The position numbers were made by a program, and so were the translations under genes. Positions 118 through 21,182 of a DNA stretch of 22,386 nucleotides are shown piece by piece. The DNA comes from a virus. Lineage: Duplodnaviria > Heunggongvirae > Uroviricota > Caudoviricetes. The notes beneath the pieces are model-generated. The model was not told the DNA's origin. It was given only the letters and a program-made list of their open reading frames with translations, and made no database searches. The stretch is taken from IMG/VR virus record IMGVR_UViG_3300029653_000080; one strand, written 5' to 3'. Within the stretch, counting starts at the first letter, position 1. The number at the start of each line of letters is the position of its first letter.

Positions 118-124
118 CTCTTAG

Positions 125-442
<318 letters not shown>

Positions 443-450
443 CCACTACA

Positions 451-1374: not shown

Positions 1375-2072
1375 AAAACATCGCCGCACAGATGGTTAAC
1401 TTTGACCGTGAGCAGATGCGTCGGATCGCCAACAATATGCCGGAACAGTACGACGAAAAGCCGCAGGTACAACAGGTAGCGCAGATCATCAATGGTGTGT
1501 TCAGCCAGTTACTGGCAACTTTCCCGGCGAGCCTGGCTAACCGGGACCAGAACGAACTGAACGAAATTCGCCGCCAGTGGGTGCTGGCTTTCCGGGAAAA
1601 CGGGATCACCACAATGGAACAGGTTAACGCAGGAATGCGCGTAGCCCGTCGGCAGAATCGACCATTCCTGCCATCACCCGGGCAGTTTGTTGCATGGTGC
1701 CGTGAAGAAGCATCCGTTATTGCCGGACTGCCAAACGCCAGCGAGCTGGTTGATATGGTTTACGAGTATTGCCGGAAGCGTGGCCTGTATCCGGATGCAG
1801 AGTCTTATCCGTGGAAATCAAACGCGCACTACTGGCTGGTTACTAGCCTGTACCAGAATATGCGGGCCAATGCGCTTACTGATACGGAATTACGGCGCAA
1901 GGCTGCCGATGAACTGACTTGTATGACCGCGCGAATTAACCGTGGTGAGGCGATACCTGAACCAGTAAAACAACTTCCTGTCATGGGCGGTAGACCTCTA
2001 AATCGTGTTCAGGCGCTGGCGAAGATCGCAGAAATCAAAGCTAAGTTCGGGCTGAAAGGAGTGATGAAATAG
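1371..2072 (+). CDS. P: Replication protein P (DnaB helicase loader), essentially lambda P
   Basis: 233-aa ORF MKNIAAQMVNFDREQMRRIANNMPEQYDEKPQVQQ...KAKFGLKG, near-identical to lambda P as recalled. Start overlaps the O stop (ATGA), as in lambda. Confidence 0.93.
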   Translation: MKNIAAQMVNFDREQMRRIANNMPEQYDEKPQVQQVAQIINGVFSQLLATFPASLANRDQNELNEIRRQWVLAFRENGITTMEQVNAGMRVARRQNRPFLPSPGQFVAWCREEASVIAGLPNASELVDMVYEYCRKRGLYPDAESYPWKSNAHYWLVTSLYQNMRANALTDTELRRKAADELTCMTARINRGEAIPEPVKQLPVMGGRPLNRVQALAKIAEIKAKFGLKGVMK

Positions 2073-2321
2073 AGCTAAAGTATTAGCTTAAAAATAAAGT
2101 ATACCTAGCGAATATAATCTAGGACTAGTTGTTATGCCCGAAATGATTGATTGCGTGAGTAACAAAGTGTCTCTTCCATTGTTGTGAAATCATTTAGCCA
2201 TAAAGTTTATGCAGAGATTTTATTTTATTTTTGAGTTGATTTTTTTGTAACGATCTGTATATTTCGCGCCTCTTGTCATACCAGTTATTTTTTTCATTAT
2301 ATTCATAACGTTGATTGAACT

Positions 2322-5300: not shown

Positions 5301-5873
5301 CTGTTGAAAAGTAAGTCAGGCGAAGCATTAAGTGGTCGAGCATTGAATGTTAAGACATCTGGGCCGTCTAAATATGGTGCGTTGGTGGTTGATAAAACCA
5401 CAGTAACGACTGATGAGAACGGTCAGGCTACGGTAAGCGTACATGGTCGAACGGTTGGTTCGTATAAATTAACGGCGACCTTAAACGAACTTGGCAGTGA
5501 TGTTAGCGCGGTGAAATCATTCTCCCTGTACGCTGATGACGCAAATGGAGTATTGACTCTAACAAAAGATCCTGGTTATGAGACAAACGATGGCTCTCCA
5601 GTAGGTATTTATGCTCGATTTGTCGATCATTTTGGAAACCCATTATCTGGTACGGTTGAGTTTTCTGCTGGTAGTGAAGATAGTCCAGACTCTCAACGGG
5701 TCAAAATGGAGCCTGCTACAGTAACGTTACACTGGACAGGTAATGCAGCTTCGGAATTCAGCACCTATGAAAGTGGTTATCACTGGATTAAGGCCAAAAT
5801 AACGAATAGCAAAAATACATATGAGAAAACAATAAGGACTTATGTTGTAAAACTACCTGAAAAGGATAGTTAA
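2322..5873 (+). CDS. Inverse autotransporter (invasin/intimin-family, type Ve) adhesin with repeated bacterial Ig-like (Big_1-type) domains; no LysM domain
   Basis: Long N-terminal signal (…SLIPANSFA). The beta-barrel region (DWLQQYGNARIKLNVDDSFSLKDSSFDFLYPWLDTQDYVLFSQ...ERPANGWDFSAEGWLPAYPQLG...NPYAVTGGISYTPVPL...DFVERNNNIVLEYKKK) closely parallels the Yersinia invasin beta-domain. About 8 Ig-like repeats follow. AT-rich codon usage. Confidence 0.85.
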   Translation: MTTVNKKLKKTASGAITWSVIVTQILSPVSLSLIPANSFASSGNKDVTQTYASDEHANKVASFAASAGQSLANNNASSFAVNTLSTQGTKEVVDWLQQYGNARIKLNVDDSFSLKDSSFDFLYPWLDTQDYVLFSQTSLHRTDDRNQTNIGLGIRHFTPDNAMLGANVFYDYDLSRSHSRAGFGVEYWRDYFRLGVNTYFGLSDWKNSRDIDDYLERPANGWDFSAEGWLPAYPQLGASIQFEKYYGKNVGLFGSDNLQENPYAVTGGISYTPVPLIKFSAQHKQGQSNVHDTTFGVEFNYRPGVSLAEQLSSDNVAVMREVQNRRYDFVERNNNIVLEYKKKHALKISLPESVQGEGESIIPVTLTINNASGGIKSVQWNDSAFTAAGGKISGNGTSWQITLPAYKSEGVNSWNVGATVQDNRGNVSNYAVMNISVNNSGVSTADSSFTLDGDSSPTISADGQSTYPIVLSLKDSNGKALTGLADDIEMSVEFTADSNSARQRETVTAPSLGAVEEISAGVYRSVLAAGSQAGTVRVTAKVQGKTFTLSIKQTAATEPDSEVSAVLTAAPAEQVVGYNINLQLAVKDSQGNAITGDNTLSFYALNQAEGVEFGTVTEKDGVYSATVTSKRAGKITIGVKSDSHDFSGVKKEITFIEDRQQVTFSQFEASQNNALADGKQRNMVTVSLADRFGNVVPGYAVTLSLPAGITQVGGEHAVSTDENGNAIFALISSTPGSYVITAHAGSQMSTELTVTFASNMTGASLSLTPESSSLISNIPANGKDAAVLDVQLTNTNASVNGQKIQLITSSEGLSVPTNIVTDSTGHVSVPLTTVKAGEYTVTARVTDGSHSVESGSVKLTFVPDVASAELTMSVSKQEIVADGSENATVNIQLVDANNNAFTGEVDLTITPSTGASLTSSNLQLDAHGQATTQFTASKSGQYTIQAEYVLDGKRITASQNIDAVTDVKGAVLEITSSASSAVVSDTNNLVFTLLLKSKSGEALSGRALNVKTSGPSKYGALVVDKTTVTTDENGQATVSVHGRTVGSYKLTATLNELGSDVSAVKSFSLYADDANGVLTLTKDPGYETNDGSPVGIYARFVDHFGNPLSGTVEFSAGSEDSPDSQRVKMEPATVTLHWTGNAASEFSTYESGYHWIKAKITNSKNTYEKTIRTYVVKLPEKDS

Positions 5874-5885
5874 CAAAATTGAATG

Positions 5886-5912
5886 GGGAGGGCTTAGCCC
5901 TCCCTCTTTTTA
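5886..5912. terminator. Bidirectional intrinsic terminator between the convergent adhesin and esterase genes
   Basis: Perfect 8-bp GC-rich stem gggagggc-tta-gccctccc followed by tcttttt on the plus strand; A-rich on the other side gives a U-rich tract for the minus strand. Confidence 0.7.
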
Positions 5913-6953
5913 CAGGTTAGCGTTTGGGTTTTGTTGTTGGGGAGCTGTTTTTATAGGCGCTCCCAGGTTTTTAGTAAACCACTCAACGACTCTGTTTATA
6001 ATAATTGGCTGATACCATGTCTTATCGCCATGCTCGGCCCCTTCTACCAGCACGTACTCAGCGTTATCGCCGTTCTTCTTCAACATCCTGAATAGTTTGG
6101 CGCTTTGCTCAGGTGAAACCAGAGTGTCTTTGCTACCATGCATAATAAGAAATGGGGGTTTTACTCCTTTCATATGTCCGATTGGACTGGCGTTTAGCGC
6201 TTTTTCTTTTGACGCTGTGATGGGGGCTCCCGCAAAATTTCTGAATGCAGGGCCATTGATCATTAAGGCTTCGGTTACGGCAGGAGAGCGATGAACCTCC
6301 TGCACTGATTCAGGGAACCCCTCGCCAATATTCAACAAGTCAGAAATCCCATAAAGTGTGGCAACTGCCTGAACATCTGAGGATTGCTGAAGAAAGTCAC
6401 CTTTATCAAAGGTTTTGTCACCATTTGTAGTTCCCATCATCTGAGCAAGCCATCCACCGGCAGAGTCACCCAGAACTCCGATTCTTTGAGGATCAATCCC
6501 ATAATTGCTGGCATGCTCTCTCAGGTAACGTATTGCAGCTTTTCCATCCTCAACTGGTGCTGGAAATGTATCAGGAATTGTTCTGTATTCTACAGCGGCC
6601 ACAACAAAACCAGCTTCTGCCAGAGCCATTCTCATTTCAATAAATTTGTCATGTTCAGAAGACATGAATCCGCCGCCGGGATAATAAATAATGGCTGGTT
6701 TTAAATCATTTGTTCGCGGGACAAGAACTGACATGTGAAGCTGTCTGACAGAACGAGTTCCTTTTATCTGGGAATAAACAACATCACCAATGAGATCGAC
6801 TTGGTTTCTGGTCGGTGAAACACTAATGATATCTGCACCCGGGGTGTAACCAGGAAGATTAGTCTGGACAGGTGTTGCACAACTCCCGACCGACATGGCC
6901 ATTGACATACCATACAATAGTGTTGCAGATGATAATATCTTGTTAATTTTCAT
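5910..6953 (-). CDS. Secreted (probably lipoprotein) alpha/beta-hydrolase-fold esterase/lipase, HSL-like (Abhydrolase_3) family
   Basis: Signal peptide MKINKILSSATLLYGMSMAMSVGSC (possible lipobox), oxyanion-hole motif YYPGGGF, nucleophile elbow GDSAGG, C-terminal EGAEHGD histidine. Confidence 0.8.
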   Translation of the reverse strand: MKINKILSSATLLYGMSMAMSVGSCATPVQTNLPGYTPGADIISVSPTRNQVDLIGDVVYSQIKGTRSVRQLHMSVLVPRTNDLKPAIIYYPGGGFMSSEHDKFIEMRMALAEAGFVVAAVEYRTIPDTFPAPVEDGKAAIRYLREHASNYGIDPQRIGVLGDSAGGWLAQMMGTTNGDKTFDKGDFLQQSSDVQAVATLYGISDLLNIGEGFPESVQEVHRSPAVTEALMINGPAFRNFAGAPITASKEKALNASPIGHMKGVKPPFLIMHGSKDTLVSPEQSAKLFRMLKKNGDNAEYVLVEGAEHGDKTWYQPIIINRVVEWFTKNLGAPIKTAPQQQNPNANL

Positions 6954-7400
6954 GTTTTACATGCCTTGACTTATCGGATGAAATTCTCTTACTGAATTTA
7001 ACGGCAGTTTAATAGCCGTACAACTCGTGGTAGCCAGGGAAATATCCCAGTCGTGGTTAAGGTTGTACTTGACGGCTATTATTTCAACAATGCTTAAAGT
7101 GAGAGCTTAAGGTTATGCGTATGTTTTACAGTCCGAGTAGATTCTGACCAATAGCTTCTTTGTATAATTCTGTCAGAAATAAATCTTGGCTTGCATGAAG
7201 TTTGAGACCTTATCTTGTTTGATTATGAATAATCAATTCGCCATAATTGTATCACCGGAGCCTGAACAACTCCGGTGACTTCTGCGCTAAACGGGGACGT
7301 TTATGCGCACACACAATCCAAACTCTCTTCTCCCTTCACAGATGCAGAAATGCACCTGCGTTTTTTTGCATCCAGCGTCTGACCTCTGTGGAGGTGAAGC

Positions 7401-7856
7401 GTGAACCTACCACAAGATGGCATCAAACTGCATCGCGGTAACTTCATCGCTATCGGCCAGCAGATCCAGCCTTATCTGGAGGACGGAAAATGCTTTCGCA
7501 TGGTGCTTAAACCGTGGCGTGAGAAACGCAGTCTTTCCCAGAATGCACTCAGCCATATGTGGTACAGCGAAATCAGTGAATACCTCATCAGCAGGGGGAA
7601 ATCGTTCGCTACCGCAGCATGGGTAAAAGATGCTCTCAAACACACATACCTCGGTTATGAAACCAAGGACCTGGTTGATGTCGTAACCGGCGAAATCACT
7701 ACTATCCAGTCGTTACGCCATACCTCCGATCTTGATACCGGAGAGATGTATGTCTTCCTGTGTAAGGTTGAAGCCTGGGCGATGAATATTGGCTGCCACC
7801 TGACTATTCCGCAGAGCTGCGAGTTCCAGCTGCTGCGCGACAAGCAGGAGGCGTAA
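7401..7856 (+). CDS. ninB: NinB/Orf-family recombination mediator (DLP12 ybcN-like)
   Basis: 151-aa ORF with GTG start and GGAGGTG RBS; position and size fit lambdoid NinB, and the next gene overlaps in the ATGA pattern typical of nin operons. Confidence 0.8.
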
Positions 7857-8026
7857 TGGCTACACCGCTTATTCGTGTCATGAACGGACACATCTACAAA
7901 GTACCAAATCGTCGTAAGCGTAAACCTGAGCTGAAGCCATCCGAAATACCAACACTGCTCGGGTATACCGCCAGCCTGGTTGATAAAAAATGGTTGCGAC
8001 TGGCAGCAAGGAGGAATCATGGCTGA
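7856..8026 (+). CDS. ninE: NinE-like small protein
   Basis: 56-aa [59 protein letters not shown]. Shares the KRKP...Y.A.L.D..WLR pattern of lambda NinE; start overlaps the ninB stop. Below the ORF-track length cutoff. Confidence 0.55.
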   Translation: MATPLIRVMNGHIYKVPNRRKRKPELKPSEIPTLLGYTASLVDKKWLRLAARRNHG

Positions 8027-8309
8027 TTTAAGAAAAGCAGCGCGTGGTCGGGAATGCCAGGTAAGAATCCCTGGCGTATGTAATGGCAATCCTGAAACGT
8101 CAGTACTGGCACATATCCGGCTGGCTGGATTGTGCGGTACCGGTATCAAACCGCCAGACCTGATTGCCACCATTGCATGTTCTGCCTGCCACGACGAAAT
8201 CGACCGTCGCACGCATTTTGTTGACGCTGGATATGCAAAAGAATGCGCGCTGGAAGGTATGGCGAGAACACAGGTTATCTGGTTGAAAGAGGGGGTTATT
8301 GAGGCGTGA
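8019..8309 (+). CDS. ybcO: YbcO-family protein (DUF1364, putative metal-dependent nuclease)
   Basis: [62 protein letters not shown]...; AAGGAGG RBS before the ATG at 8019. Track ORF 7980..8309 uses an upstream TTG. Confidence 0.7.
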
Positions 8310-8668
8310 ATACCTACAGCATCACATTACCCTGGCCTCCGAGCAATAATCGCTATTACCGCCATAATCGTGGGCGCACGCACGTCAGCGCAGAGGGGCA
8401 GGCATACTGCGATAACGTCGCCCGAATCATTAAAAACGCAATGCTGGATATCGGCTTGGCTATGCCAGTGAAAATCAGCATTGAGTGCCACATGCCGGAT
8501 CGCCGTCGCCGTGACCTTGATAATCTGCAAAAGGCCGCTTTTGACGCACTCACCAAAGCAGGTTTCTGGCTGGATGATGCTCAGGTCGTTGATTACCGCG
8601 TTGTGAAGATGCCCGTTACCAAAGGTGGGAAGCTGGAGCTGACTATCACTGAACTGGGAGATGAATGA
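8306..8668 (+). CDS. rusA: Holliday-junction resolvase RusA
   Basis: 120-aa [37 protein letters not shown]...[31 protein letters not shown], near-identical to E. coli RusA as recalled. Confidence 0.93.
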
Positions 8669-8805
8669 TGTTTGAGTCTTATATGGCAGAGCGTCTTCGC
8701 CGCCGCTGGGTGCGCCTGCGCTTATATCGTTTTCCTGGTTCTGTTTTGACCGATTACCGAATACTGAAGAATTACGCCAAAACCCTGACAGGAGCAGGAG
8801 TATGA
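8665..8805 (+). CDS. ylcG: Small YlcG-like protein (46 aa)
   Basis: [49 protein letters not shown] overlapping the rusA stop, at the position of DLP12 ylcG. Below the ORF-track cutoff. Confidence 0.5.
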
Positions 8806-8890
8806 AGTCAGAGATAACAATCAACTAATACTGTTTTGTTGATTTTTGCTTGTAATTGGCGTTCTGGTCTGATTTTTGTGGAGTAAGTTG

Positions 8891-9274
8891 ATGCGTGATA
8901 TTCAGATGGTTCTTGAGCGTTGGGGAGCGTGGGCGGCTAATAATCATGAAGATGTGACCTGGTCGTCCGTTGCCGCCGGTTTTAAGGGATTAATTCCTTC
9001 AAAAGTAAAATCTCGCCCGCAATGTTGTGACGATGACGCGATGATCATTTGCGGGTGCATGGCCCGTCTGAAAAAGAACAACAGCGATTTACACGATTTA
9101 TTAGTAGATTATTATGTATGTGGTATGACATTCATGTCACTGGCAAGTAAGCATTGCTGCTCGGATGGTTATATCGGGAAAAGGTTACAGAAGGCTGAGG
9201 GCATAATTGAAGGGATGTTAATGGCATTAGATATCCGGTTAGATATGGATATCGTTGCTAATAATTCTAATTGA
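8891..9274 (+). CDS. Q: Late-gene antiterminator Q (phage 82/DLP12 QuuD type)
   Basis: [26 protein letters not shown]...[32 protein letters not shown]... with Cys-rich zinc-binding region; GGAG RBS 7 nt before the ATG at 8891 (track start 8876 is an upstream TTG). Confidence 0.85.
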
Positions 9275-9306
9275 TATGCAATTGTTTACTAAAAGTTATT
9301 AAAAAT

Positions 9307-9324
9307 GGGGCGTGGAAACGCCCC
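9307..9324 (-). terminator. Intrinsic terminator for minus-strand transcripts (porin gene / IpeX-like RNA)
   Basis: ggggcg-tggaaa-cgcccc stem-loop; on the minus strand it is followed by AUUUUUAAUAA. Confidence 0.55.
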
Positions 9325-9411
9325 CAAAATAAAGGGTAATATATAACAGAAGGTTTATATAGTAAGAAGCAAGGTAGTGCTTCTAAAGGAAGTGGCTTGA
9401 GGGCTCCACTT

Positions 9412-9451
9412 ATATGTTGCGGAGGCAAAGCCTCCCGCAACATATCTTTTT
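9412..9451 (+). terminator. Plus-strand intrinsic terminator downstream of Q (tR'-like); also a stabilising hairpin at the 3' end of the porin mRNA
   Basis: 15/16-bp stem atatgttgcggaggc-aaa-gcctcccgcaacatat followed by cttttt on the plus strand. Confidence 0.5.
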
Positions 9452-9462
9452 CGTAAGTCAGA

Positions 9463-10545
9463 TTAGAACTGATAAACCAGACCTACAGCGACGATGTCGT
9501 CGGTATCAATACCAGCTGTTTTGGTAAACTTACTATCGTCAATTAAGTTGATTTTGTAATCAACAAAAGTGGACATGTTTTTATTAAAGTAGTAAGTAGC
9601 ACCGACATCGACATACTTGACTAAGTCTCGGTCACCATGAACACCAAGGTCTTTACCTTTTGACTGAAGGTAAGCAACAGATGGTCGCAGACCGAAGTCA
9701 AACTGATATTGTGCTACTGCTTCAAAGTTTTGTGCTTTGTTTGCAATATGGTTATTACCAAAAACGGTCATATTCTGAGTTTCAGAATATGTGGTAGCCA
9801 GATAGATATTGTTCGCATCATATTTCAGGCCTGCAGCCCATACTTCCGCATTTTTGCCGGAGGCATTGAATTTGCTCTTACCATAGGCGACCTGACCGTC
9901 AGTGCGATCTGATTTAGCATAGGTTGCACCCACGCCGAATCCTTCATACTCATAAGTAGTGGAGAAACCGAAACCATCACCATTGGCTTCAGTTACGTCA
10001 GTGCGGTCATTTTTACCCTGATACTGAGCAGCAAAGTTCAGGCCATCGACCAGACCAAAGAAGTCGTTGTTACGATAAGTTGCAACACCAGTAGTGCGAC
10101 CAGTCATGAACACATCTGTTTGGGTCCAGGTATCACCACCGAATTCTGGCAGGACGTCAGTCCACGCACCGATGTCGTATGCTACACCGTAGTTACGGCC
10201 GTAATCGATTGAGCCGTAATCACCAAATTTCAGGCCTGCAAATGCAAGACGGGTTTTGTCTTTGGAAGAACCTTGAGATTCAGCACGGTTGCCTTTGAAT
10301 TCATATTCCCACTGACCGAAACCAGTCAGTTGATCGTTGATTTGGGTTTCACCTTTGAAGCCAAGACGGGCATAAGTAGTATCACCATCATCTGCATCAT
10401 TAGAGGAGAAGTAGTGCTTGGCATTAACTTTCCCGTATAGATCCAGCTTGTTACTGTCTTTATTATAAATTTCAGCTGCCTGAGCAGACATCGCCATCAG
10501 TACTGATGCAGCTACAGCAGAAATTGCCACTGTTAATTTTTTCAT
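9463..10545 (-). CDS. nmpC: Outer-membrane general porin, OmpC/OmpF/NmpC family, apparently intact
   Basis: 360-aa ORF with signal peptide [23 protein letters not shown] and C-terminal ...VAVGLVYQF; matches E. coli NmpC as recalled, at the same Q-to-holin position as in DLP12. Confidence 0.9.
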
Positions 10546-10972
10546 TGTACGCCCTTTTTTTTGAACTATTATTAAAAAATGATGTCACTGCGCGATAAAT
10601 ATTCATCTAATCAATGCGATTATTTCAAGATGTAAGTTTTAGTTTCTCATTTAATTTGTGAAGTAGATCTCTATTTTTATCTGAACCTTTTCTATCTAAT
10701 CCTATTCATGGCTCTTGTTTGAACGAAAATAAATCTATTAGCTAATTTATATTAATGGCACTTATTTATAAGCGCTCTATAATTCTTTAACTTAATTTAA
10801 ACAAACTAAAAATAACATCGGAAATTATTCGTTGGTTATTTGTTGAAGTTTTCTTATGTATTTGTGGTGGTGTTTTGAACACTCGGTGGCATTCTCACAA
10901 ATATCATTTAGTAGTTTACGTACGTAAAAAATTGGTTATGCTGTTAAGAGTGGTTACTTCGTCACACAGCTT

Positions 10973-11006
10973 AAACCCGCCGTCGAGCGGGTTTTTCCAT
11001 TTTTTG
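10973..11006 (+). terminator. Plus-strand intrinsic terminator in the 590-bp AT-rich region between the porin promoter and the holin gene
   Basis: aaacccgc-cgtcga-gcgggttt followed by ttccattttttg. Confidence 0.6.
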
Positions 11007-11134
11007 AGTCTCGATATTAGCTGATAACCCAATACCTGAGTTATTCACTGACTCCGAATCTGTTACGTTTCTGCCTTTATTGCGATACGTAGTATCCCCT
11101 TAATTTACACCCGCTTTGTCTGCGAGGTGGGGTT

Positions 11135-11350
11135 ATGAAATCCATGGATAAGTTAACAACGGGTGTCGCCTATGGCACCTCAGCAGGTAGTGCCGGGTAC
11201 TGGTTTTTACAGTTGCTCGATAAAGTCACGCCCTCACAGTGGGCGGCAATAGGTGTGCTGGGTAGTCTGGTATTTGGCTTGCTGACGTATCTGACAAACC
11301 TTTATTTCAAGATTAAAGAAGATAAGCGTAAGGCTGCGAGAGGTGAATAA
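11135..11350 (+). CDS. S: Class II pinholin, S21 type
   Basis: 71-aa [74 protein letters not shown], closely matching phage 21 S; stop overlaps the next ATG (TAATG). Confidence 0.9.
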
Positions 11351-14300
11351 TGTCGCCATCATTACGCAAGGCTATTGCTGCTGCTATTGGTGGTGGGGCT
11401 GTTGCCATAGCGTCTGTGCTCATCACTGGTCCGAGTGGTGACGATGGCCTGGAAGGTGTCAGCTACATACCATACAAAGATATTGTTGGTGTATGGACTG
11501 TATGTCACGGGCATACAGGAAAAGACATCATGCTCGGTAAAACGTATAAAGGCAGCAGTAAGGGGCATACCCCGCGCGAAGCGAAGGACAACCTGAAATC
11601 CACGCAGTTACTGAGTGTGATCGATGCCATCAGCGAAGGGCCGATTGAAGGTCCGGTGGATGGGTTAAAAAGCGTGCTACTGAACAGTACGCCGGTGCTG
11701 GACACTGAGGGGAATACCAATATCTCCGGTGTCACGGTGGTGTTCCGGGCAGGTGAGCAGGAGCAGACTCCGCCGGAGGGGTTTGAATCCTCCGGCTCCG
11801 AGACGGTGCTGGGTACGGAAGTGAAATACGACACGCCGATCACCCGCACCATCACGTCGGCAAACATCGACCGTCTGCGTTTTACCTTCGGTGTGCAGGC
11901 ACTGGTGGAAACCACTTCAAAGGGTGACCGGAATCCGTCGGAAGTTCGCCTGCTGGTTCAGATACAGCGTAACGGTGGCTGGGTGACGGAAAAAGACATC
12001 ACCATTAAGGGCAAAACCACCTCGCAGTATCTGGCCTCGGTGGTGGTGGATAACCTGCCTCCGCGCCCGTTCAATATCCGGATGCGCAGGATGACACCGG
12101 ACAGCACCACAGACCAGCTGCAGAACAAAACGCTCTGGTCGTCATACACCGAAATCATCGATATGAAACAGTGCTACCCGAACACGGCACTGGTCGGTGT
12201 GCAGGTGGACTCGGAGCAGTTCGGCAGTCAGCAGGTGAGTCGTAATTATCATCTGCGCGGGCGCATTCTGCAGGTGCCGTCGAACTATAACCCGCAGACG
12301 CGACAATACAGCGGTATCTGGGACGGAACGTTAAAACCGGCATACAGCAACAACATGGCCTGGTGTCTGTGGGATATGCTGACCCATCCGCGCTACGGCA
12401 TGGGGAAACGTCTTGGTGCGGCGGATGTGGACAAATGGGCGCTGTATGTCATCGGCCAGAATTGCGACCAGTCGGTGCCGGATGGTTTTGGTGGCACGGA
12501 GCCGCGCATCACCTGTAATGCCTGGCTGACCACACAGCGTAAGGCGTGGGATGTTCTCAGTGATTTCTGCTCGGCGATGCGCTGTATGCCGGTATGGAAC
12601 GGGCAGACGCTGACGTTCGTGCAGGACCGGCCGTCGGATAAGGTGTGGACCTATAACCGCAGTAATGTGGTGATGCCGGATGATGGCGCGCCGTTCCGCT
12701 ACAGTTTCAGCGCCCTGAAGGACCGCCATAATGCCGTTGAGGTGAACTGGATTGACCCGGATAACGGCTGGGAGACGGCGACAGAGCTTGTGGAGGACAC
12801 GCAGGCCATTGCCCGTTACGGTCGTAACGTCACGAAGATGGATGCCTTTGGCTGTACCAGTCGGGGGCAGGCACACCGAGCCGGGCTGTGGCTGATTAAA
12901 ACGGAACTGCTGGAAACGCAGACCGTGGATTTCAGCGTGGGCGCAGAAGGGCTTCGCCATGTGCCGGGCGATGTTATTGAAATCTGCGATGATGACTATG
13001 CGGGTATCAGCATCGGCGGGCGCGTGCTGGCGGTGAACAGCCAGACCCGGACGCTGACGCTCGACCGTGAAATCACTCTGCCATCCTCCGGTACCACGCT
13101 GATAAGCCTGGTTGACGGAAGCGGCAATCCGGTCAGCGTGGAGGTCCAGTCCGTCACCGACGGCGTGAAGGTAAAAGTGAGCCGGGTTCCTGACGGCGTT
13201 GCCGGATACAGCGTGTGGGGGCTGAAGTTGCCGACGTTGCGCCAGCGCCTGTTCCGCTGCGTGAGTATCCGTGAGAACGATGACGGCACGTATGCCATCA
13301 CTGCCGTGCAGCATGTACCGGAAAAAGAGGCCATCGTGGATAACGGGGCGCACTTTGACGGCGACCAGAGCGGCACGGTGAATGGTGTCACGCCGCCAGC
13401 GGTGCAGCACCTGACTGCCGAAGTCACCGCAGACAGCGGGGAATATCAGGTGCTGGCGCGCTGGGACACGCCGAAGGTGGTGAAGGGGGTGAGCTTTATG
13501 CTTCGCCTGACCGTGGCAGCGGATGACGGCAGTGAGCGGCTGGTCAGCACGGCCCGGACGACGGAAACCACATACCGCTTCACGCAACTGGCGCTGGGGC
13601 GGTACACGCTGACAGTCCGGGCGGTAAATGCGTGGGGGCAGCAGGGCGATCCGGCGTCGGTATCGTTCCGGATTGCCGCACCGGCAGCACCGTCGAGGAT
13701 TGATCTGACGCCGGGCTATTTTCAGATAACCGCCACGCCGCATCTTGCCGTTTATGACCCGACGGTACAGTTTGAATTCTGGTTCTCGGAAAAGCGGATT
13801 ACCGATATCAGGCAGGTTGAAACCACAGCCCGCTATCTTGGCACGGCGCTGTACTGGATAGCTGCCAGTATCAATATTAAGCCGGGCCATGATTATTATT
13901 TTTATATCCGCAGTGTGAATACTGTTGGCAAATCGGCATTCGTGGAGGCTGTCGGTCAGGCGAGCGATGATGCTTCCGGCTATCTGGATTTTTTCAAAGG
14001 CCAGATAACTGAATCCCATCTCGGCAAGGAGCTGCTGGAAAAAGTCGAGCTGACGGAGGATAACGCCAGCAAACTGGAGGAGTTTTCGAAAGAGTGGAAA
14101 GACGCCAACGATAAATGGAATGCCATGTGGGGCGTCAAAATTGAGCAGACCGAAGACGGCAGGCATTATGTCGCGGGTATTGGCCTCAGCATGGAGGATA
14201 CGGAGGAAGGCAAACTGAGCCAGTTCCTGGTTGCCGCTAACCGTATCGCGTTTATTGACCCGGCAAACGGGAATGAAACGCCGATGTTTGTGGCGCAGGG

Positions 14301-14940
14301 CAACCAGATATTCATGAACGAAGTGTTCCTGAAGTATCTGACGGCTCCCACCATTACCAGCGGCGGCAATCCGCCGGTATTTTCCCTGACACCGGACGGG
14401 CGGTTGACGGCGAAAAATGCCGATATCAGCGGTAACGTGAATGCGAACTCAGGGACGCTCAATAATGTCACGATTAACCAGAACTGTCGGATTCTGGGAA
14501 AACTGTCTGCCAACCAGATTGAAGGTGATATTGTCAAAACGGTGGGAAAAGCCTTTCCGAGAAATGGCAGTTATGCCAGCGGTACAATAACGGTCACTGT
14601 GTACGATGACCAGGCTTTTGACCGTCAGATAGTAATCCCACCCGTTCTGTTTCGCGGTGGTAAGCATGAAAACTTCAACAGCAACAACCAACAGTCATAC
14701 TGGTATTCAACCTGTAAGCTGCAGGTACTGAAGAACGGACAGGAAATCTTTCAGCAACCCGCGACGGATGTCAGCAGGGTATTTTCATCCGTCATTGATA
14801 TGCCAGCGGGACACGGCCATGTCACCCTGACTTTCAATGTTTCTTCATATGGTGCAAATAACTGGACGCCAACGACCAGTATCAGCGACCTTCTTGTTGT
14901 CGTGATGAAGAAATCAACAGCCGGTATCAGTATCAGTTGA
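11350..14940 (+). CDS. Chimeric ORF: N-terminal 66 codons of a SAR endolysin (R21 type, signal-anchor-release domain) fused in frame to codon 3 onward of a lambda-type tail-tip host-specificity protein J; C-terminal about 150 aa of J diverge from lambda
   Basis: Residues 1-66 [66 protein letters not shown] match the R21 SAR endolysin N-terminus. From [36 protein letters not shown]... the sequence is near-identical to lambda J from residue 3. Junction at about nt 11547. Confidence 0.85.
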
Positions 14941-14998
14941 ATTTTATAACCCAAATACGGGCGCCAGAAATGGCGCCTTTTTTATTTGTGGAGTGAAT

Positions 14999-17060
14999 AT
15001 GGCAGTACAGATTTCAGGCGTGCTGAAAGACGGTGCAGGAAAACCAATACAGAACTGTACTATTCAGCTCAAAGCAAAGCGTAACAGCACCACGGTACTG
15101 GTGAACACGGTGGCCTCTGAAAATCCGGATGAAGCCGGGCGTTACAGCATNNNNNNNNNNNNNNNNNNNNNNNNNNNNNNNNNNNNNNNNNNNNNNNNNN
15201 NCGCCTTCACATGCCGGGACCATTACCGTCTATGAAGGTTCCAGACCAGGTACGCTGAATGATTTTCTCGGTGCCATGACGGAAGATGATGTCATGCCGG
15301 AGGCATTGCGTCGTTTTGAGGTAATGGTGGAGGATGTGGCACGCAACGCTGAAGCCGCCTCTCAGAGCGCAGCGGCAGCAAAGAAATCAGAAACAGCAGC
15401 GGCATCGTCCAGGAACGCGGCGAAAACATCAGAGACGAATGCAGGTAACAGCGCGAAAGCGGCAGCTTCTTCAAAAACAGCCGCACAAAACGCAGCAACA
15501 GCGGCAGAACGTTCAGAGACAAATGCCCGTGCGTCAGAAGAAGCCTCCGCAGACAGTGAAGAGGCTTCCCGCCGTAATGCAGAGTCAGCCGCTGAAAATG
15601 CCGGAGTCGCCACCACAAAAGCGCGGGAGGCTGCAGCAGACGCAACAAAGGCCGGGCAGAAAAAGGATGAGGCTCTGTCGGCAGCGACACGAGCTGAAAA
15701 GGCGGCAGACCGCGCAGAAGCCGCAGCGGAAGTGACTGCAGAGCCCTATGCGAATATAGTGCCGCCGCTGCCTGATGTGTGGATACCGTTTAACGATTCA
15801 CTGGATATGATTGCGGGTTTTTCTCCGGGCTATAAAAAAATAGCTATTGGTGACGATGTGGTTCAGGTCGCCAGTGATAAACAGGTTAATTTCAGTCGCG
15901 CATCAACGGCAACATATATCAACAAATCTGGCGAACTGAAAACGGCGGAAATTAATGAGCCGCGATTTGAGTGTGATGGCCTGCTTATTGAGGGACAAAG
16001 AACGAACTACATGCTCAATTCGGAAAGTCCAGCCAGCTGGGGGAAGTCATCAAACATGGATGTGCCCGAAACCGGGACGGATAGTTTTGGTTTTACTTAT
16101 GGAAAGTTTGTCTGCAACGATTCTCTGGTTGGGCAAACTTCGGCTATTAATATGGCATCAATTGCTGCAACAAAGTCAGTTGATGTCTCAGGCGATAACA
16201 AGTACGTGACAACCTCATGCCGTTTTAAAACAGAACGACAGGTAAGGTTACGTATACGGTTTGATAAGTATGATGGTAGTGCAACAACTTTTCTTGGCGA
16301 TGCGTACATTGATACGCAAACGCTTGAAATTAATATGACAGGTGGTGCTGCCGGCAGAATTACGGCACGAGTCAGGAAGGATAAGACCACGGGCTGGATT
16401 TTTGCAGAGGCAACGATTCAGGCAATTGATGGTGAGTTAAAAATAGGCTCTCAGATACAGTATTCTCCTGAGCAGGGTGGGGCAACAGTATCTGGTGACT
16501 ATATTTATCTTGCCACCCCACAAGTAGAGAATGGGCCGTGTGTATCATCATTTATTATTTCAGGAGGCAGCGCAACGACAAGAGCCAGTGATTTGGTTAG
16601 TATCCCCACCAGAAATAATCTTTATAAGTTACCATTTACTTTTTTACTTGAGATTCATAAAAACTGGGATATTGCACCAAACGCCGCACCCCGCGTGTGG
16701 GATATAGCAGCAGCCAATACCGGGCAATCAGCAATTGCAGCAATCAACAGAGGTAGTGGTAAGTTATATATGAGTCTGTCAAACCCTTCAGGCTCGTATG
16801 TTAATAGCGCAGCGACAGATGTATTTGCAGAGAAAACCACATTTGGATGTATTGCAAAAGCTGATGGTCACTTTCATGTGGTGACAAATGGTAAAGCGGT
16901 TAATGAAGTTTATTGTGAATATAATGGCGTGACCGCTGATAAAAATATCCGATTTGGAGGGCAGACGAATACTGGAGAACGACATCTGTTTGGCCATATT
17001 CGCAATTTCCGCATATGGCATAAAGAATTAAATGACAGGCAATTAAAAGAGGTCGTATGA
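14999..17060 (+). CDS. stf: Side tail fibre protein (Stf-like): lambda-Stf-type N-terminus, Ala-rich central repeats, lectin-like (LamG / concanavalin-type) C-terminal region; interrupted by an assembly gap
   Basis: N-terminus MAVQISGVLKDGAGKPIQNCTIQLKAKRNSTTVLVNTVASENPDEAGRYS...PSHAGTITVYEGSRPGTLNDFL parallels lambda Stf. C-terminus ends ...NIRFGGQTNTGERHLFGHIRNFRIWHKELNDRQLKEVV, the typical end of Laminin_G_3-type domains. A 51-N run breaks the frame; track ORFs 14993..15235 and 15129..17060 are the two parts. Confidence 0.8.
15151..15201. other. Assembly gap / masked bases (51 N) inside stf
   Basis: Run of n characters. Flanking codons match lambda Stf on both sides with about 17 codons missing, and the N count is not frame-preserving, so the length is a placeholder. 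Confidence 0.95.
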
Positions 17061-17335
17061 AAGATTTAACTTTGAAGTTTCATGACAAACTGCAGTTTAA
17101 GGCCTTCCTGTCATCTCTTGGCTGGGCGGAAGATGAAGACCTCCAGAATAAACTGTTAGTTGATGAAATTGGTTTCACCTACACAGAAACAGGGGTAACA
17201 GAAGAGGGAGAACCTGTCTGTATCCGGAATGATGGTTATTTTGTCAACATTCGCATTCTTGATGACTTGTTTGATGTTTCTGTATTCTCTGATTATGTCG
17301 TGGAGCTGGAAACACCGCTTCGGGAATGGAGCTGA
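17057..17335 (+). CDS. Hypothetical acidic 92-aa protein translationally coupled to stf (tail-fibre accessory candidate); not Tfa-like
   Basis: ATG overlaps the stf stop (ATGA); RBS AAGAGG upstream. Sequence MKDLTLKFHDKLQFKAFLSSLGWAEDEDLQNKLLVDEIGFTYTETGVTEEGEPVCIRNDGYF... has no signal peptide and no family I recognise. Confidence 0.55.
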   Translation: MKDLTLKFHDKLQFKAFLSSLGWAEDEDLQNKLLVDEIGFTYTETGVTEEGEPVCIRNDGYFVNIRILDDLFDVSVFSDYVVELETPLREWS

Positions 17336-17347
17336 AAGGAGGAAATA

Positions 17348-17788
17348 ATGGATATAAGCCCCTTACTTCATGCACTTTGTGCTGTGGCTGCGCAGATACT
17401 GGTTGGTCTTTTTACCGGAAACTGGGCTTACGGAGCGATAGCCGGTTGTACGTTCTTCATTGCGCGTGAACATACCCAGGCAGAATATCGCTGGATTGAA
17501 ATGTTCGGGCATGGCAAGCGAATGAATATGCCGTGGTGGGGCGGTTTTGATCCGCGTGCTTGGGATGTGGCAAGCCTGATGGATTTTGCTGTGCCGGTGG
17601 TGGCGTGTCTGCTGGTCTGGCTGTTGGTTAATCGTGGGCGAAAAAAGGTGAGCTGTATATGCAACGGAGGAAGAAACCCCGTTGCTGGAAGCCAGGAAAA
17701 AGTATCGGGTGTTGCTGTCCTCGGATGTTGTGCTAATTGGGTGATAACAGATCCTGTGTATGGGAGTTTCCCTTTTTGCGTGCGTTGA
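17348..17788 (+). CDS. Hypothetical inner-membrane protein (about 3 predicted TM helices); the C-terminal about 45 codons are doubtful and overlap the sitD 3' end
   Basis: Strong RBS AAGGAGG 6 nt before the ATG. Hydrophobic segments LLHALCAVAAQILVGLFTG, WAYGAIAGCTFFIA, ASLMDFAVPVVACLLVWLLV, then a basic NRGRKK; the Cys-rich tail overlaps convergent sitD. Confidence 0.5.
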   Translation: MDISPLLHALCAVAAQILVGLFTGNWAYGAIAGCTFFIAREHTQAEYRWIEMFGHGKRMNMPWWGGFDPRAWDVASLMDFAVPVVACLLVWLLVNRGRKKVSCICNGGRNPVAGSQEKVSGVAVLGCCANWVITDPVYGSFPFCVR

Positions 17789-18590
17789 TGCTGGTAACGG
17801 CAAACGTCATGATGAACAAAACCGCGAATAAGACGACAATCGTCGGAGCTGGTGCGCTGTCGATAAAAAAGGACAACCAGACACCAGTCATTGACACTAT
17901 TACCGATATGCCAGTCGCCAGTAGGAGCGCAATATGAAAGCGTTGTGTCAGGAGTACCGCAATGGCGCCAGGCGCAATGAGCAGAGAAATGGAGAGAATG
18001 ATACCTACCGCTTTCAGCGTCGCCACAATGGTCAGAGAGACCATGCACAGCAGCCCATAATGCAGCCATCTCGTATGCAAACCGCTTACCTGCGCCTGTT
18101 GATAATCAAAGCTGAACAGCAAAAAATCCCGCCATTTTACGCTAATAACAAGTGTAACCAGCCCGGCAATAATCATCGTCTGGATTATATCGCCGATGGT
18201 TATCCCGAGCATGTCGCCGAAAAGAATATGGTCAAGATGTACGTCTGGTTTGACTGCAATATACAAAATCAGACCTGCGGCAAACATGCCAGAAAAAACA
18301 ATCCCCATCACTGTATCTTGCTTGATTCGGCTGTTGTCTTTCAGGTATCCCGTCGCCACCGCGCAGAATACTCCGGCGACGAATGCCCCTGTAGCCAAAG
18401 GTAACCCCAGAATCCAGGCAAGCACGATGCCAGGAAAAACCGCATGACTCATCGTGTCACCCATCAGTGCCCAGCCTTTCAGGACCAGAAAGACCGACAG
18501 CAGCGCACAGGGTATGGAAACTACCAGTGAAATCAGCAGTGCGTGACTCATAAAGGTGAACTGCAGTGGCTCCAGTAATAATGCCATCAT
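17733..18590 (-). CDS. sitD: Mn/Fe ABC transporter permease SitD
   Basis: 285-aa polytopic permease; last gene of the four-gene minus-strand operon, start overlapping the sitC stop. Confidence 0.9.
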   Translation of the reverse strand: MMALLLEPLQFTFMSHALLISLVVSIPCALLSVFLVLKGWALMGDTMSHAVFPGIVLAWILGLPLATGAFVAGVFCAVATGYLKDNSRIKQDTVMGIVFSGMFAAGLILYIAVKPDVHLDHILFGDMLGITIGDIIQTMIIAGLVTLVISVKWRDFLLFSFDYQQAQVSGLHTRWLHYGLLCMVSLTIVATLKAVGIILSISLLIAPGAIAVLLTQRFHIALLLATGISVIVSMTGVWLSFFIDSAPAPTIVVLFAVLFIMTFAVTSINARKKGNSHTQDLLSPN

Positions 18591-19444
18591 GAGCGATCCT
18601 CCAGCGCCTTATGCGCACGCCGACGATTTGCCAAAAGCCCATGGGTGGGCGCAAAGACAAATGCTAAAAGAAACAGCAGTGTCTGCGCCACCACGATGAT
18701 TCCACCTGTCGCGCCGTCCAGAAAGTAACTGACCCACGCGCCGAGGAAACTGGTTACACTGCCAATAGTTACAGCAATCATGAGCAGGCGGGGAAAACGA
18801 TCGGTTAACAACCATGCTGTTGCTCCGGGAGTCACCACCAGACAGATCACCAGAAAGGCACCAACCGTTTGCAGCGCCGCAACGGTCGAAACCGACAGCA
18901 GGGTGAAGAAGAGGAGTTTTAATCTGCCCGGATGCAATCCAATAGCACGGGCGTGATTCTCGTCGAAAAAGGTCACCATAAGATCTTTCCATTTGAAAAA
19001 AAGCACGATGATCGAGAGAATGCCAATGATAGTGAGTTGCAGGATATCCGCCGGATCGATTGCCAGAATATTGCCCAGGACGATGGTCTGAATGTTCACA
19101 GATGTCGGGTTCAATGACACCATAAACAGCCCCAGGCCAAAAAAGGACGAGAAGATCAGGCCGATGATGGCATCTTCTTTTAAGCGGGTGCGTTGGTTAA
19201 GAAACAGCATGCTGCCCGCAGCCAGTCCGCCGGAAAAGAAGGCTCCCAGAGAAAACGGAAGCCCCAGCATATATGCCCCCGCAACACCCGGGACAATAGA
19301 GTGCGACAACGCATCGCCAATCAGCGACCAGCCTTTTAGCATCAGATAGCATGACAGGAAAGCGCAGAGACCGCCGACCATCGCCGAGACCCACATCGCA
19401 TTGAGCATATATTCATAGCTGAAGGGTTCCAGTAGCACGTTCAT
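18587..19444 (-). CDS. sitC: Mn/Fe ABC transporter permease SitC
   Basis: 285-aa permease paralogous to SitD; start and stop overlap neighbours by 4 nt. Confidence 0.9.
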
Positions 19445-20268
19445 CTTTCTTCCCTCTGCACCGCTGACGGTCGATGAGCCACAAAAGGGCGTTCATCGTC
19501 AGTAATAATGCTTTCTTCCGAGCCGTTAAGTGTGACATGGCGCAGTACGCCGCTAAAAGCCAGCTCCAGGTTCTCGGCTGTAAAAGTGGTGTCTGTCGGC
19601 CCGCTTGCCAGGACGGTGCCTTTGACCATGACCGTATAATCGCAAAATGTCGTGACGGATCCGAGATTGTGCGTTGAGACAAGCATCGTTTTGCCTTCCG
19701 CGCGTAACTCCCTCAACAGGCTGATGATTTTGGCTTCGGTTTTCACATCAACGCCAGTAAAAGGTTCATCCAGCAGGATCACATCACCCTGCTGTGCAAT
19801 CGCTCTCGCCAGAAAGACGCGTTTCTTTTGTCCACCGGAAAGCTCGCCGATTTGTCGATGGCGAAAATTCACCATATCGACACGTTCCAGCGCATCGGTG
19901 ACAATTTGACGATCCCTCTTTTTGGCGATACGCAACATACCCATATGCCCATAGCGGCCCATCATCACCACATCTTCCACCAGTACAGGAAATGACCAGT
20001 CAACCTCTTCTGACTGAGGGACGTAGGCAACCAGGTTTTTCTGTAACGCCTGTCGCGTGGGAATACCCAGAACAGATATCTTTCCGCTGGTCAGACGCAC
20101 AAATCCCATAATCGCTTTAAACAACGTCGATTTTCCGGAACCGTTTACCCCAACCAGAGCGGCAATAGATCCACTTGGTACTGTGAAGGATGCATCGCGC
20201 AGTGCTGTGTGCCCGTTACGCCAGGTGACAGCAACATCATTAACGACAATGCCTGCAGATTGCATCAT
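19441..20268 (-). CDS. sitB: Mn/Fe ABC transporter ATP-binding protein SitB
   Basis: Walker [13 protein letters not shown] signature LSGGQKKR, Walker B ILLDEP. Confidence 0.92.
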
Positions 20269-21182
20269 TATTTCTCCCTTTTCCCGGCTTTAATTCCCTG
20301 TACCAGCGTACTGGTAGTAACCTTAAGAAGGTCGATATACGTCGGTACCGGGCCGTTTTCTGTGCTCAGGGAATCGACATAGAGCACACCGCCGTAGTGT
20401 GCGCCGGTTTCACGCGCAACCTGACGCGCTGGTTTATCGGAAATCGTACTCTCGCTAAAGACTGCCGGGATATGATTTTTCTTAACTATATCAACAACCT
20501 TACGTACCTGCTGCGGTGTTCCTTGTTGATCGGCATTAATCGGCCACAGATAAAGCTCTTTTAGCCCCAAATCGCGTGCGAGATAAGAAAAAGCCCCTTC
20601 ACTGGTGACCATCCATCGCTGATTCTCAGGGAGTTCCGTAATCTGCTTACGCAGGGGGGCAAGGGTTTGGGTAATCTTGGCTTTATAAGTATCGGCATTG
20701 CGTTGGTAGGTTTGTGCATTTGCCGGATCGTATTTTATCAACGCATCACGAATATTATCGACGTAAATCAGAGCATTATCTGGCGACATCCATGCATGGG
20801 GGTTAGGTTTGCCCTCATAGGGTCCTTCGGTGATCCCTACAGGCGTCACACCCGAAGAGACAATTACTTCTGGAACCCCATTGAGATGCTGGTAAAAGCG
20901 TTGGAACCACAATTCCAGATTCATACCATTGGCGAGAATCAGTTGTGCCCCCTGCGCACGTTTAATATCGCCAGGGGTAGGCTGATACTCATGAATTTCT
21001 GCACCAGGCTTGGTTATGGATGAGACTTCTGCAGCATCTCCCGCCACGTTTTTGGCCATATCCGCGATGATGGTAAATGTTGTAATGACCTTAAATTTTT
21101 CAGTTGCACTTGCCTGAAATGCGATCGAGCAGGTGAGTGCGAGGCCCCCCAAGAGCATGGTTACTTTTTTTATTGAGCGCAT
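20268..21182 (-). CDS. sitA: Periplasmic metal-binding protein SitA (cluster A-I substrate-binding protein)
   Basis: 304 aa with signal peptide [26 protein letters not shown]; first gene of the operon. Confidence 0.9.

Follow-up and report, generated by a model that had tools for sequence, protein, structure and literature searches.

How does a prophage come to hold one reading frame that begins as a lysis enzyme and ends as a tail tip attachment protein, and does its product serve any role? Within the 22,386-nt viral DNA analysed here (IMG/VR record IMGVR_UViG_3300029653_000080; the whole stretch is called the window), an uninterrupted ATG ORF of 1196 aa occupies 11350..14940, just as a sequence-only reading had described it, and the gene just upstream is a holin. 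We regard this chimera as very probably an unselected in-frame deletion scar, a by-product of prophage decay. The features needed for the argument are listed by coordinates, strand, identity and basis.

8891..9274, + strand: Q-type late antiterminator quuD, intact in the window (RefSeq annotation of near-identical loci)
9463..10545, − strand: OmpC/Lc/NmpC-like porin, a moron (porin OmpC in the annotation of phage 4A7 and all relatives)
10973..11005, + strand: terminator-like hairpin and T-run (consensus scan and direct reading of the sequence)
11135..11350, + strand: phage-21-type pinholin essD, intact (Pfam PF04971 Phage_holin_2_1, phage 21 S family, E=2e-35)
11350..11547, + strand: signal-anchor-release (SAR) endolysin, first 66 codons (SAR segment and E35/D44/T50; rest of the lysozyme fold absent)
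11547..11548, + strand: deletion junction with 2-bp TA microhomology (alignment to phage 4A7)
11548..14940, + strand: gpJ, tail tip attachment protein, codon 3 to stop (PDB 8iyk alignment, Pfam, 4A7 J)
14999..17060, + strand: side tail fibre stf (alignment to 4A7; 51 masked N at 15151–15201 in the window)
17733..21182, − strand: sitDCBA iron/manganese transporter (RefSeq annotation of relatives and 4A7; 99.6% identical to 4A7)

Residues 1–66 of the chimera align end to end with phage 21 lysozyme (PDB code 3hde) and DLP12 RrrD (4zpu), with 62/66 identical and E ~3e-38, which bears out the earlier assignment to the N terminus of a phage-21-type SAR endolysin. With these enzymes (phage 21 R and RrrD; 3hde, 3hdf and 4zpu; 94% identity over the first 66 residues) the chimera has in common the SAR segment and the E-X8-D-X5-T catalytic motif, retained as E35, D44 and T50. 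Basic R6 and K7 precede the weakly hydrophobic Gly/Ala-rich segment, whose residues 8–26 have a mean Kyte-Doolittle value of 2.11, equal to that of R21. As in phage 21 R-type endolysins, the start codon overlaps the pinholin stop, here by one base between the ATG and the TAA of the 71-aa holin ORF (TAATG); the coupling to the holin that had been claimed stands as far as this overlap goes, but it is merely the native S/R arrangement, found in 4A7 too. A complete T4-lysozyme-like catalytic domain (~165 aa) is absent, residues 1–66 being all that is present: the match to Pfam Phage_lysozyme PF00959 covers profile positions 3–34 of 125 only, and the alignment to 3hde ends at residue 67. Judged by this truncated fold, the chimera cannot be an active muramidase.

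Residues 67–1196 are collinear with residues 3–1131 of lambda gpJ (PDB code 8iyk), matching the earlier claim that lambda J begins at its residue 3 from codon 67, and all six gpJ Pfam domains are found (FNIII-A, Phage-tail_3, Ig_J, Ig_J_second, Phage_Tail_Tip and Ig_GpJ_C; E 1e-35 to 1e-43). The J proteins of phages 4A7 and 4C10 (Bievrevirus) likewise run collinear with the chimera from their residue 3 through to the C terminus and have the same six domains (98.1% aa identity between the J part and 4A7 J), and the neighbours of their J locus, stf, sitABCD and the icd attachment site, also lie beside the chimera. Unlike in lambda and 4A7, J here has neither its own Met-Gly start nor its ribosome site, and no tail genes from Z to I precede it; J residues 1–2 are swapped for 66 foreign endolysin residues on the N-terminal end of the hub-forming region, and the tail operon partners with which J assembles (gpI, gpL, gpK, gpM and gpH) were not found in the window, every gene from terminase to I being deleted relative to 4A7. 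A second departure from lambda lies at the other end, where the final 166 aa score 297 bits against A8 gpJ (9wca) versus 132 bits against lambda gpJ. This receptor-binding domain, ~82% identical to OmpC-targeting A8 gpJ, belongs by alignment to the A8/OmpC type and not to the lambda/LamB type, and OmpC is the probable receptor of the J part.

The undeleted counterpart of the locus is phage 4A7 (NC_049946, Bievrevirus), whose gene order is the same as that of the window (esterase, ybcN, ninE, rusA, Q, porin, holin, endolysin and, further on, J, stf, sitDCBA, icd', int) and to which the window flanks are 99.4–99.6% identical (99.4% for the quuD region); both 4A7 and 4C10 can be induced and form plaques (bioRxiv 10.64898/2026.05.26.727859). 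In alignment to 4A7, endolysin homology stops at window position 11548 and J homology begins at 11547 (a 2-nt BLAST overlap), so the breakpoint is a 2-bp TA overlap at 11547–11548 (endolysin side ...ACGTA[TA], J side GG[TA]AAGGC), the same place as previously proposed (~nt 11547). Missing from the window are exactly 4A7 47328–49168 plus 1–15412. On this alignment a single 17.25-kb deletion at the TA microhomology explains the junction, in keeping with the single in-frame deletion suggested before: what is gone is the endolysin beyond codon 66, Rz, cos/terminase, and the head and tail genes as far as I.

The porin gene, read from the opposite strand, separates Q from the holin, the terminator-like hairpin lies 130 nt upstream of the holin, and a consensus scan identified no late promoter. 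The pinholin shows zero differences across six carrier sequences set base by base against the window. The side tail fibre cannot be read through in the window because the 51 masked Ns lie inside it. Strain M1/5 matches the window letter for letter from holin to J (11135–14940) and has 0–2 differences per 500 nt over the rest of what the two share; its stf is an intact 686-aa ORF. An intact stf had been claimed, which fails for the window copy, broken by the Ns, and holds for M1/5; stf as a pseudogene, suggested by its split RefSeq annotation and the broken window ORF, was ruled out by the masked Ns and the M1/5 ORF. The integrase and O are both frameshifted, the cI/cro/N/recombination region is gone with IS fragments in place, and the remainder of the prophage is dead, integrase function and the whole regulatory region having been lost. 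This decay resembles that of the cryptic lambdoid prophages DLP12, Rac and Qin of K-12, with morphogenesis genes lost by internal deletion, the nin region, Q, porin moron, holin and cargo kept, and the regulatory region replaced by IS elements. What sets the chimera apart from the chimeric pseudogenes of those prophages is that by chance its endpoints leave an in-frame ORF of great length, labelled intact gpJ (WP_001556898.1) by annotation pipelines. The cargo that keeps the island in the genome is plausibly sitDCBA.

Of 5426 complete E. coli genomes, 79 carry the junction (80 records); it also occurs in 4 metagenome contigs and 8 IMG/VR contigs, and at least 1000 contigs are recorded as encoding the exact chimera protein. 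An assembly or sequencing artefact, a concern of the sequence-only reading, is possible in principle, J being a multi-copy repeat in E. coli genomes at which mis-joins could arise; we found no support for it. Many laboratories and platforms produced the 79 complete genomes, each assembled independently, in which the identical junction occurs; together with the metagenome and IMG/VR contigs they leave a vanishingly small probability for such an error, and the population data have already refuted it. A junction scan of species-representative genomes found nothing, a protein word-index search with the junction peptide returned short proteins only and not the full-length chimera, and literature searches found no description of the fusion.

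The carriers are nearly all one recent clone (ST1193 and relatives). At least 60 show no difference (100% identity) over 3806 nt, among them the ST1193 genomes MS10711, MS10858, MS10860, MS8320, MS8324, MCJCHV-1, 09-02E and AVS0096 (PMC11488385). Because these carriers are clonal, ORF intactness in ST1193 is uninformative on selection. A few older lineages carry the junction as well, for example A3, H22 and BCE049. The ORF is intact in most carriers, these older ones included, and nearly all carriers keep the pinholin, SAR segment and Q without change, observations that count against a scar.

Natural knock-outs are also found. The same IS4 insertion near codon 910 is present in FDAARGOS_536, 21AR0173 and AREA_492 (USA and New Zealand), strain PAR has a nonsense change (TAC to TAG) at codon 392, the metagenome contig OFFK01044636 has a 14-nt frameshift deletion in the chimera ORF, and carrier BCE049 has an internal stop in Q. 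A succession from TAC to TAG to TGG at codon 392, read as selection for an open frame, was ruled out: TGG (Trp) occurs as natural variation in Turner and SPF_0923, both functional phages. Given this, and with the TAG on a 4A7-like flank, the PAR codon is a simple TAC-to-TAG mutation. Truncated proteins P0001, P0002 and P0068 were not counted as further knock-outs; their lesions look like long-read assembly error, being mostly 1-nt homopolymer indels of a kind that also occurs in intergenic DNA of the source genomes.

Differences among the older lineages are concentrated in J. The flanks of A3, H22, PAR and BCE049 differ from the window at 0–3 sites per 500 nt, except in bin 8001–8500, where a patch of 12 sites differs, as it does in 4A7, and their J differs, from 62 nt past the junction, at 15–30 or more sites per 500 nt, mostly synonymously. 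Both states are present in a seven-phage J gene panel at 67% of the 117 sites that separate the window from A3. By these patterns gene conversion has repeatedly replaced sequence of the J part with that of other J alleles. The reading frame was kept through several conversion events, a point that counts against a scar.

Private substitutions number 10 synonymous versus 12 non-synonymous or nonsense in A3, BCE049 and PAR, against 24 versus 8 in phages 4A7 and Turner (Fisher p=0.044, a weak signal from small numbers). Those of the window allele (15 synonymous to 4 non-synonymous) resemble functional J but may stem from a donor phage outside the sample. The dN/dS ratio among carriers has no power within ST1193, where there are zero differences, and is confounded by recombination in the older lineages. 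Purifying selection on the chimera is not borne out: loss-of-function alleles exist, at least 60 carriers are clonal and the J divergence is recombinational. Nothing indicates selection for the chimera product.

Could the product act in the envelope? Q-dependent late transcription would have to be followed by export of J through the SAR segment, and periplasmic J, tethered or released, would then block the receptor (probably OmpC) or exclude J-dependent phages in some other way. Export via the SAR anchor is conceivable from sequence, the segment being 62/66 identical to the experimentally characterised R21 segment with equal hydropathy, and SAR endolysins are known to be Sec-exported and then released from the membrane (PMC9239132). 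J is moreover full length with its A8-like receptor-binding domain, and most carriers have Q and the pinholin intact. We nonetheless consider this function highly unlikely. IS4, nonsense and frameshift knock-outs persist in nature, Q is dead in BCE049 and the conservation of the chimera is clonal; periplasmic J would meet the inner face of the porin, whereas the loops that bind phage are extracellular, as established from gpJ–LamB binding (PMC11101478); gpJ normally trimerises with gpI and gpL in the cytoplasm (PMC10721106); and a 1130-aa β-rich passenger would probably be a poor Sec substrate. A search of the chimera and holin against PADLOC defence families gave 0 matches at E<=0.001. Exclusion proteins known to act in this way are small, and lysogenic promoters rather than a late operon express them: Cor (phi80/N15) and Llp (T5) are small lipoproteins that the lysogen makes, with no relation to receptor-binding tail proteins. 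Only the idea of a prophage product acting on an outer-membrane receptor from inside the envelope is shared with them, the chimera standing in a late operon and having no similarity to either. A related scenario, in which Q (its own or that of a co-resident induced phage) would express the chimera, the SAR segment would insert it in the inner membrane and pinholin depolarisation would free complete OmpC-type J into the periplasm, disturbing porin biogenesis or superinfection, strikes us as very improbable. The receptor-masking exclusion factor and the domesticated module, both put forward by the sequence-only reading, are unsupported by a locus found almost entirely in one recent clone, with the ORF or Q broken in several natural lineages, J a patchwork and no regulatory region.

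Alternatively, the remnant could be a gene bank, selected or at least of some consequence, whose J and stf trade sequence with incoming lambdoid phages and alter their host range, the reading frame being irrelevant. J has exchanged sequence with other alleles several times while junction and flanks stayed fixed, and the remnant stf is uninterrupted, while that of 4A7 bears an IS at its 3' end. However, flow into the remnant alone is demonstrated, not out of it; such exchange goes on generally wherever prophage DNA is homologous and needs no host selection; and the fusion itself would be left unexplained. We think this reading unlikely.

The neutral deletion scar, which had been offered earlier as a fallback, is favoured by clonality, knock-outs, recombined J and the dead prophage. 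On this reading a 4A7-like (Bievrevirus) temperate phage with sitABCD was integrated at icd, and one illegitimate recombination at the TA microhomology removed ~17.25 kb, joining endolysin codon 66 to J codon 3. The join fell in frame by luck, a one-in-three chance, and because it is in frame the intact 3.4-kb J frame is appended to the endolysin start codon that overlaps the pinholin stop. The chimera would since have been carried passively with an island probably kept for sitABCD and other cargo, and it presumably looks conserved because most carriers are one young clone and J was repeatedly overwritten from functional J genes. Transcription, if any, would depend on Q and on reading through from the late promoter; its product would begin with a predicted working SAR segment and so probably lodge in the inner membrane. 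Nothing points to a role for it. Through other deletions the same endolysin N terminus is fused in frame to Lom (P0088), a DUF1441 terminase-like protein (P0107) and gpW (P0099), and in-frame endolysin fusions are, by these comparisons, a generic phenomenon.

If the functional reading were true, a single deletion would have turned a structural tail protein into an envelope-located exclusion factor, a one-step route from tail protein to envelope protein. The finding is mainly a caution, in that a deletion scar passes as intact gpJ, fixed in pandemic ST1193 and present on at least 1000 contigs. It offers a natural example of how a one-in-three in-frame join can give a very long, misleading ORF, and of how the tail gene of a dead prophage can stay open through youth and repeated gene conversion. 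The junction sequence is also a handy lineage marker of the sit-carrying island.

The fused ORF begins on the last base of the holin stop codon (TAA), one base being common to the two genes, and is the lone ATG ORF of its stretch:

11135–11350, + strand: phage-21-type pinholin, 71 codons (Pfam PF04971, E=2e-35)
11350–14940, + strand: chimera of SAR endolysin and gpJ, 1,196 codons
14440–14937: J receptor-binding domain, resembling that of the OmpC-targeting A8 gpJ

Residues 1–66 align without gaps to residues 1–66 of phage 21 lysozyme (R21; PDB 3hde) and DLP12 RrrD (4zpu; E~3e-38, 62/66 identical), and residues 67–1196 align with residues 3–1131 of lambda gpJ (8iyk), with all six gpJ domains found. 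The make-up proposed in the sequence-only reading, a SAR endolysin N terminus followed by gpJ from its residue 3, is thus correct to the codon; the feature is real and was exactly described. The sole hydrophobic segment in the entire chimera is residues 8–26, whose mean Kyte–Doolittle value (2.11) is the same as in R21. The E35/D44/T50 motif is present, and the Pfam lysozyme match covers profile positions 3–34 of 125 only, so the catalytic fold is incomplete.

Searching phage records with tblastn, we found J proteins 98.1% identical to that of the chimera in Escherichia phages 4A7, 4C10, 1W and 3W. Both 4A7 and 4C10 are live phages, inducible from lysogens and forming plaques on E. coli C (bioRxiv 10.64898/2026.05.26.727859). 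Gene order in 4A7 (NC_049946, genus Bievrevirus) is the same as in the window: esterase, ybcN, ninE, ybcO, rusA, ylcG and Q, an opposite-strand porin, then holin, endolysin and Rz, followed by terminase, head and tail genes, J, stf, two small ORFs, sitDCBA, an icd fragment and integrase. BLAST aligns the two in two segments:

window 5906–11548, 4A7 41685–47327: 99.4% identity
window 11547–15150, 4A7 15413–19016: 96.1% identity

The segments overlap by 2 bases (endolysin side ...ACGTA[TA], J side GG[TA]AAGGC), and hence 4A7 47328–49168 plus 1–15412 are missing from the window: 17,253 bp and ~23 genes, reaching from the remainder of the endolysin gene to tail gene I inclusive. This matches the earlier proposal of one frame-preserving deletion from endolysin to J, which arose by a single illegitimate recombination at the 2-bp microhomology. 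The prior for an in-frame outcome of such a deletion is one in three. In 4A7, a three-ORF transposase element (20875–23291) lies immediately after a shortened stf (643 aa); stf is longer (686 aa) and uninterrupted in the 'dead' remnant. A run of 51 N inside the window's stf (15151–15201; masked or a gap) stands where relatives have 50 nt, so that coordinates downstream are off by one and stf appears broken in the ORF list; strain M1/5 has it as an intact 686-aa ORF, which RefSeq annotates in two parts, a pseudo N-terminal fragment and an independent CDS.

The junction is no assembly artefact, a possibility ruled out by its recurrence across complete genomes, metagenome and IMG/VR contigs. A 201-nt query across the breakpoint, with the E-value limit set to drop half-matches, found the same junction in 80 records from 79 of 5,426 complete E. 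coli genomes; a junction 23-mer occurs in a further 12 contigs (4 metagenome, 8 IMG/VR), and the exact 1,196-aa protein on at least 1,000 contigs. From holin start to J stop, 60 or more complete genomes match the window at every one of 3,806 nt. These include MS10711, MS10858, MS10860, MS8320, MS8324, MCJCHV-1, 09-02E and AVS0096, each of them assigned to ST1193 in print (PMC11488385); what looks like conservation is therefore mostly that of one young pandemic clone, within which sequence identity is uninformative on selection. The junction is also present in a 237-kb record from strain MY504, and the plasmid-labelled NZ_CP195449.1 (p23AR0151A, 195 kb) holds a second copy of >43 kb of the chromosome, running from icd across the entire island, chimera included, to minCDE and ycgM; this represents an F-prime-like capture or else a fault of assembly.

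Six records from complete genomes match the junction query at only 95–99% identity, among them BCE049 (cow), A3 (bat), A26 (wallaby), H22 (human) and PAR (cockatoo). Whole-region comparison of four of these older-lineage carriers with the window reveals the same junction, zero indels and flanks differing at 0–3 sites per 500 nt, save for a 12-site patch in bin 8001–8500 that is seen in 4A7 too. The J part, by contrast, has 15–30 or more differences per 500 nt, beginning 62 nt past the junction and stopping at the start of stf; across window 11610–14916, carriers with identical junctions and near-identical flanks differ by 27–170 nt. Most differences are synonymous (87 versus 23 in A3), both states at 78 of the 117 window-versus-A3 sites are present in a panel of only seven phage J genes, and the J alleles of carriers diverge from one another as much as those of independent phages. 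The simplest reading of these comparisons is one deletion event, after which other J genes several times served as conversion donors for the J part, in tracts that would have stopped on the left where homology ends. The J part is thus a recombination patchwork, indicating that the tail gene of a dead prophage has undergone gene conversion repeatedly. Such conversion could restore or maintain an open J frame without selection at the locus.

Disrupted alleles occur in nature. An IS4 insertion near codon 910 is common to FDAARGOS_536, 21AR0173 and AREA_492 (USA blood, New Zealand urine and USA stool, respectively), codon 392 is changed from TAC to TAG in PAR, on a 4A7-like flank, and in metagenome contig OFFK01044636 the loss of 14 nt between short repeats leads to a stop at codon 153. 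In BCE049 the chimera ORF is kept and Q is interrupted by an internal stop; two sources carry the same in-frame deletion of 3 nt within the SAR segment's alanine run. Truncated proteins P0001, P0002 and P0068, which the junction-peptide search brought up from other genomes, were not counted as knock-outs, the DNA lesions traced being mainly 1-nt homopolymer indels. Among long-read records, JBIGOP010000001.1 has 0 indels in the 4.1 kb upstream of the junction and 12 from there to the J end, and UGEW01000002.1 is free of them over its initial 3.1 kb, has three in the 0.7 kb immediately upstream of the fused ORF, of which two are intergenic and one falls in the holin, and shows ten more once the SAR segment is reached; this unevenness reflects either real decay or polishing that failed because the gene is multi-copy. 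Private substitutions number 10 synonymous versus 12 non-synonymous or nonsense in A3, BCE049 and PAR, 24 versus 8 in phages 4A7 and Turner (p=0.044 against carriers) and 15 versus 4 in the window allele alone, all small and panel-dependent counts.

The surrounding island is itself decayed. Its features in the window include:

479–1153 and 1153–1374: O-like replication gene, split into two ORFs
2322–5873: inverse autotransporter, intimin/invasin-like, with Ig repeats
9463–10545, − strand: OmpC/Lc/NmpC-like porin, between Q and holin as in 4A7
10973–11005: terminator-like hairpin

The island of the ST1193 genome MCJCHV-1 is flanked by icd on one side and a duplicated icd fragment on the other, and comprises a PtuA-like ATPase and HNH nuclease, a frameshifted integrase, xis, fragments of IS3, IS30 and ISEc21 in place of cI, cro, N and the recombination genes, a frameshifted O, P, the inverse autotransporter, the esterase, the nin region with Q, the porin, holin, chimera, stf and sitDCBA. 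Thus pR and N, the natural drivers of Q transcription, are gone, and a consensus scan of the window for a late promoter was uninformative, locating none. The split O agrees with its 'frameshifted' annotation in ST1193; A3, H22 and BCE049 still have an unbroken O, so decay is further along in the window's lineage. The autotransporter stands in place of 4A7's ren, qacE and recombinase segment; it has 1,183 aa in the window and ST1193 versus 1,302 aa in A3, BCE049, PAR and FDAARGOS_536 from the same start, which indicates a difference in internal repeat copy number, and an IS3-family element cuts it off in M1/5. The AAA ATPase and HNH nuclease (MCJCHV-1 1609–3983, beside icd at the integrase end, just outside the window) match PADLOC models PtuA (E=2e-239) and PDC-M01B (E=1e-114), making them a candidate Septu-like defence pair. 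At the other end, immediately past the duplicated icd fragment, 22325–22386 matches the Hfq-binding sRNA STnc490 in Rfam (65.9 bits, clipped by the window end).

Could the product nevertheless act, for instance by masking a receptor from the periplasm? SAR endolysins are Sec-exported and tethered to the inner membrane, with release spontaneous or triggered by pinholin (PMC9239132); the SAR segment here is essentially that of R21, so membrane targeting of the chimera is plausible by inference. The last 166 residues are ~82% identical to A8 gpJ (PDB 9wca; 297 bits versus 132 for lambda), and A8, itself a chimera, uses OmpC for DNA delivery (PMC11338833), which makes OmpC the likely receptor; the ancestral phage probably used it. 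A functional product is nonetheless highly improbable. The phage-binding surface of OmpC is extracellular, out of reach from the periplasm. In a normal tail tip, gpJ forms a trimer together with gpI and gpL (PMC10721106). The chimera has no match among PADLOC defence models and belongs to a late operon that has lost its upstream regulators, and its knock-outs persist. The porin moron may be the element's real exclusion or receptor-replacement device.

The neutral deletion scar, offered earlier as an equal alternative, is thus favoured: the chimera's origin is explained by the loss of 17.25 kb at a microhomology, in one step, from a phage of known type, and its persistence by clonality, hitch-hiking with the sit island and gene conversion. 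In P0088 the same endolysin N terminus runs in frame into the C-terminal half of Lom, in P0107 into a DUF1441 terminase-like protein and in P0099 into a gpW-like protein; it also begins the chimeric ORFs P0086 and P0116, the continuations across these five being Lom, DUF1441 terminase-like, gpW or Rz. Each arose independently in another E. coli prophage, as a deletion or frameshift scar. Lambdoid prophage decay creates such chimeras routinely, and only the length of J makes this one conspicuous. It is a fresh instance of a familiar object, a chimeric ORF from prophage decay, of value for annotation hygiene and as a lineage marker, and for little beyond these.
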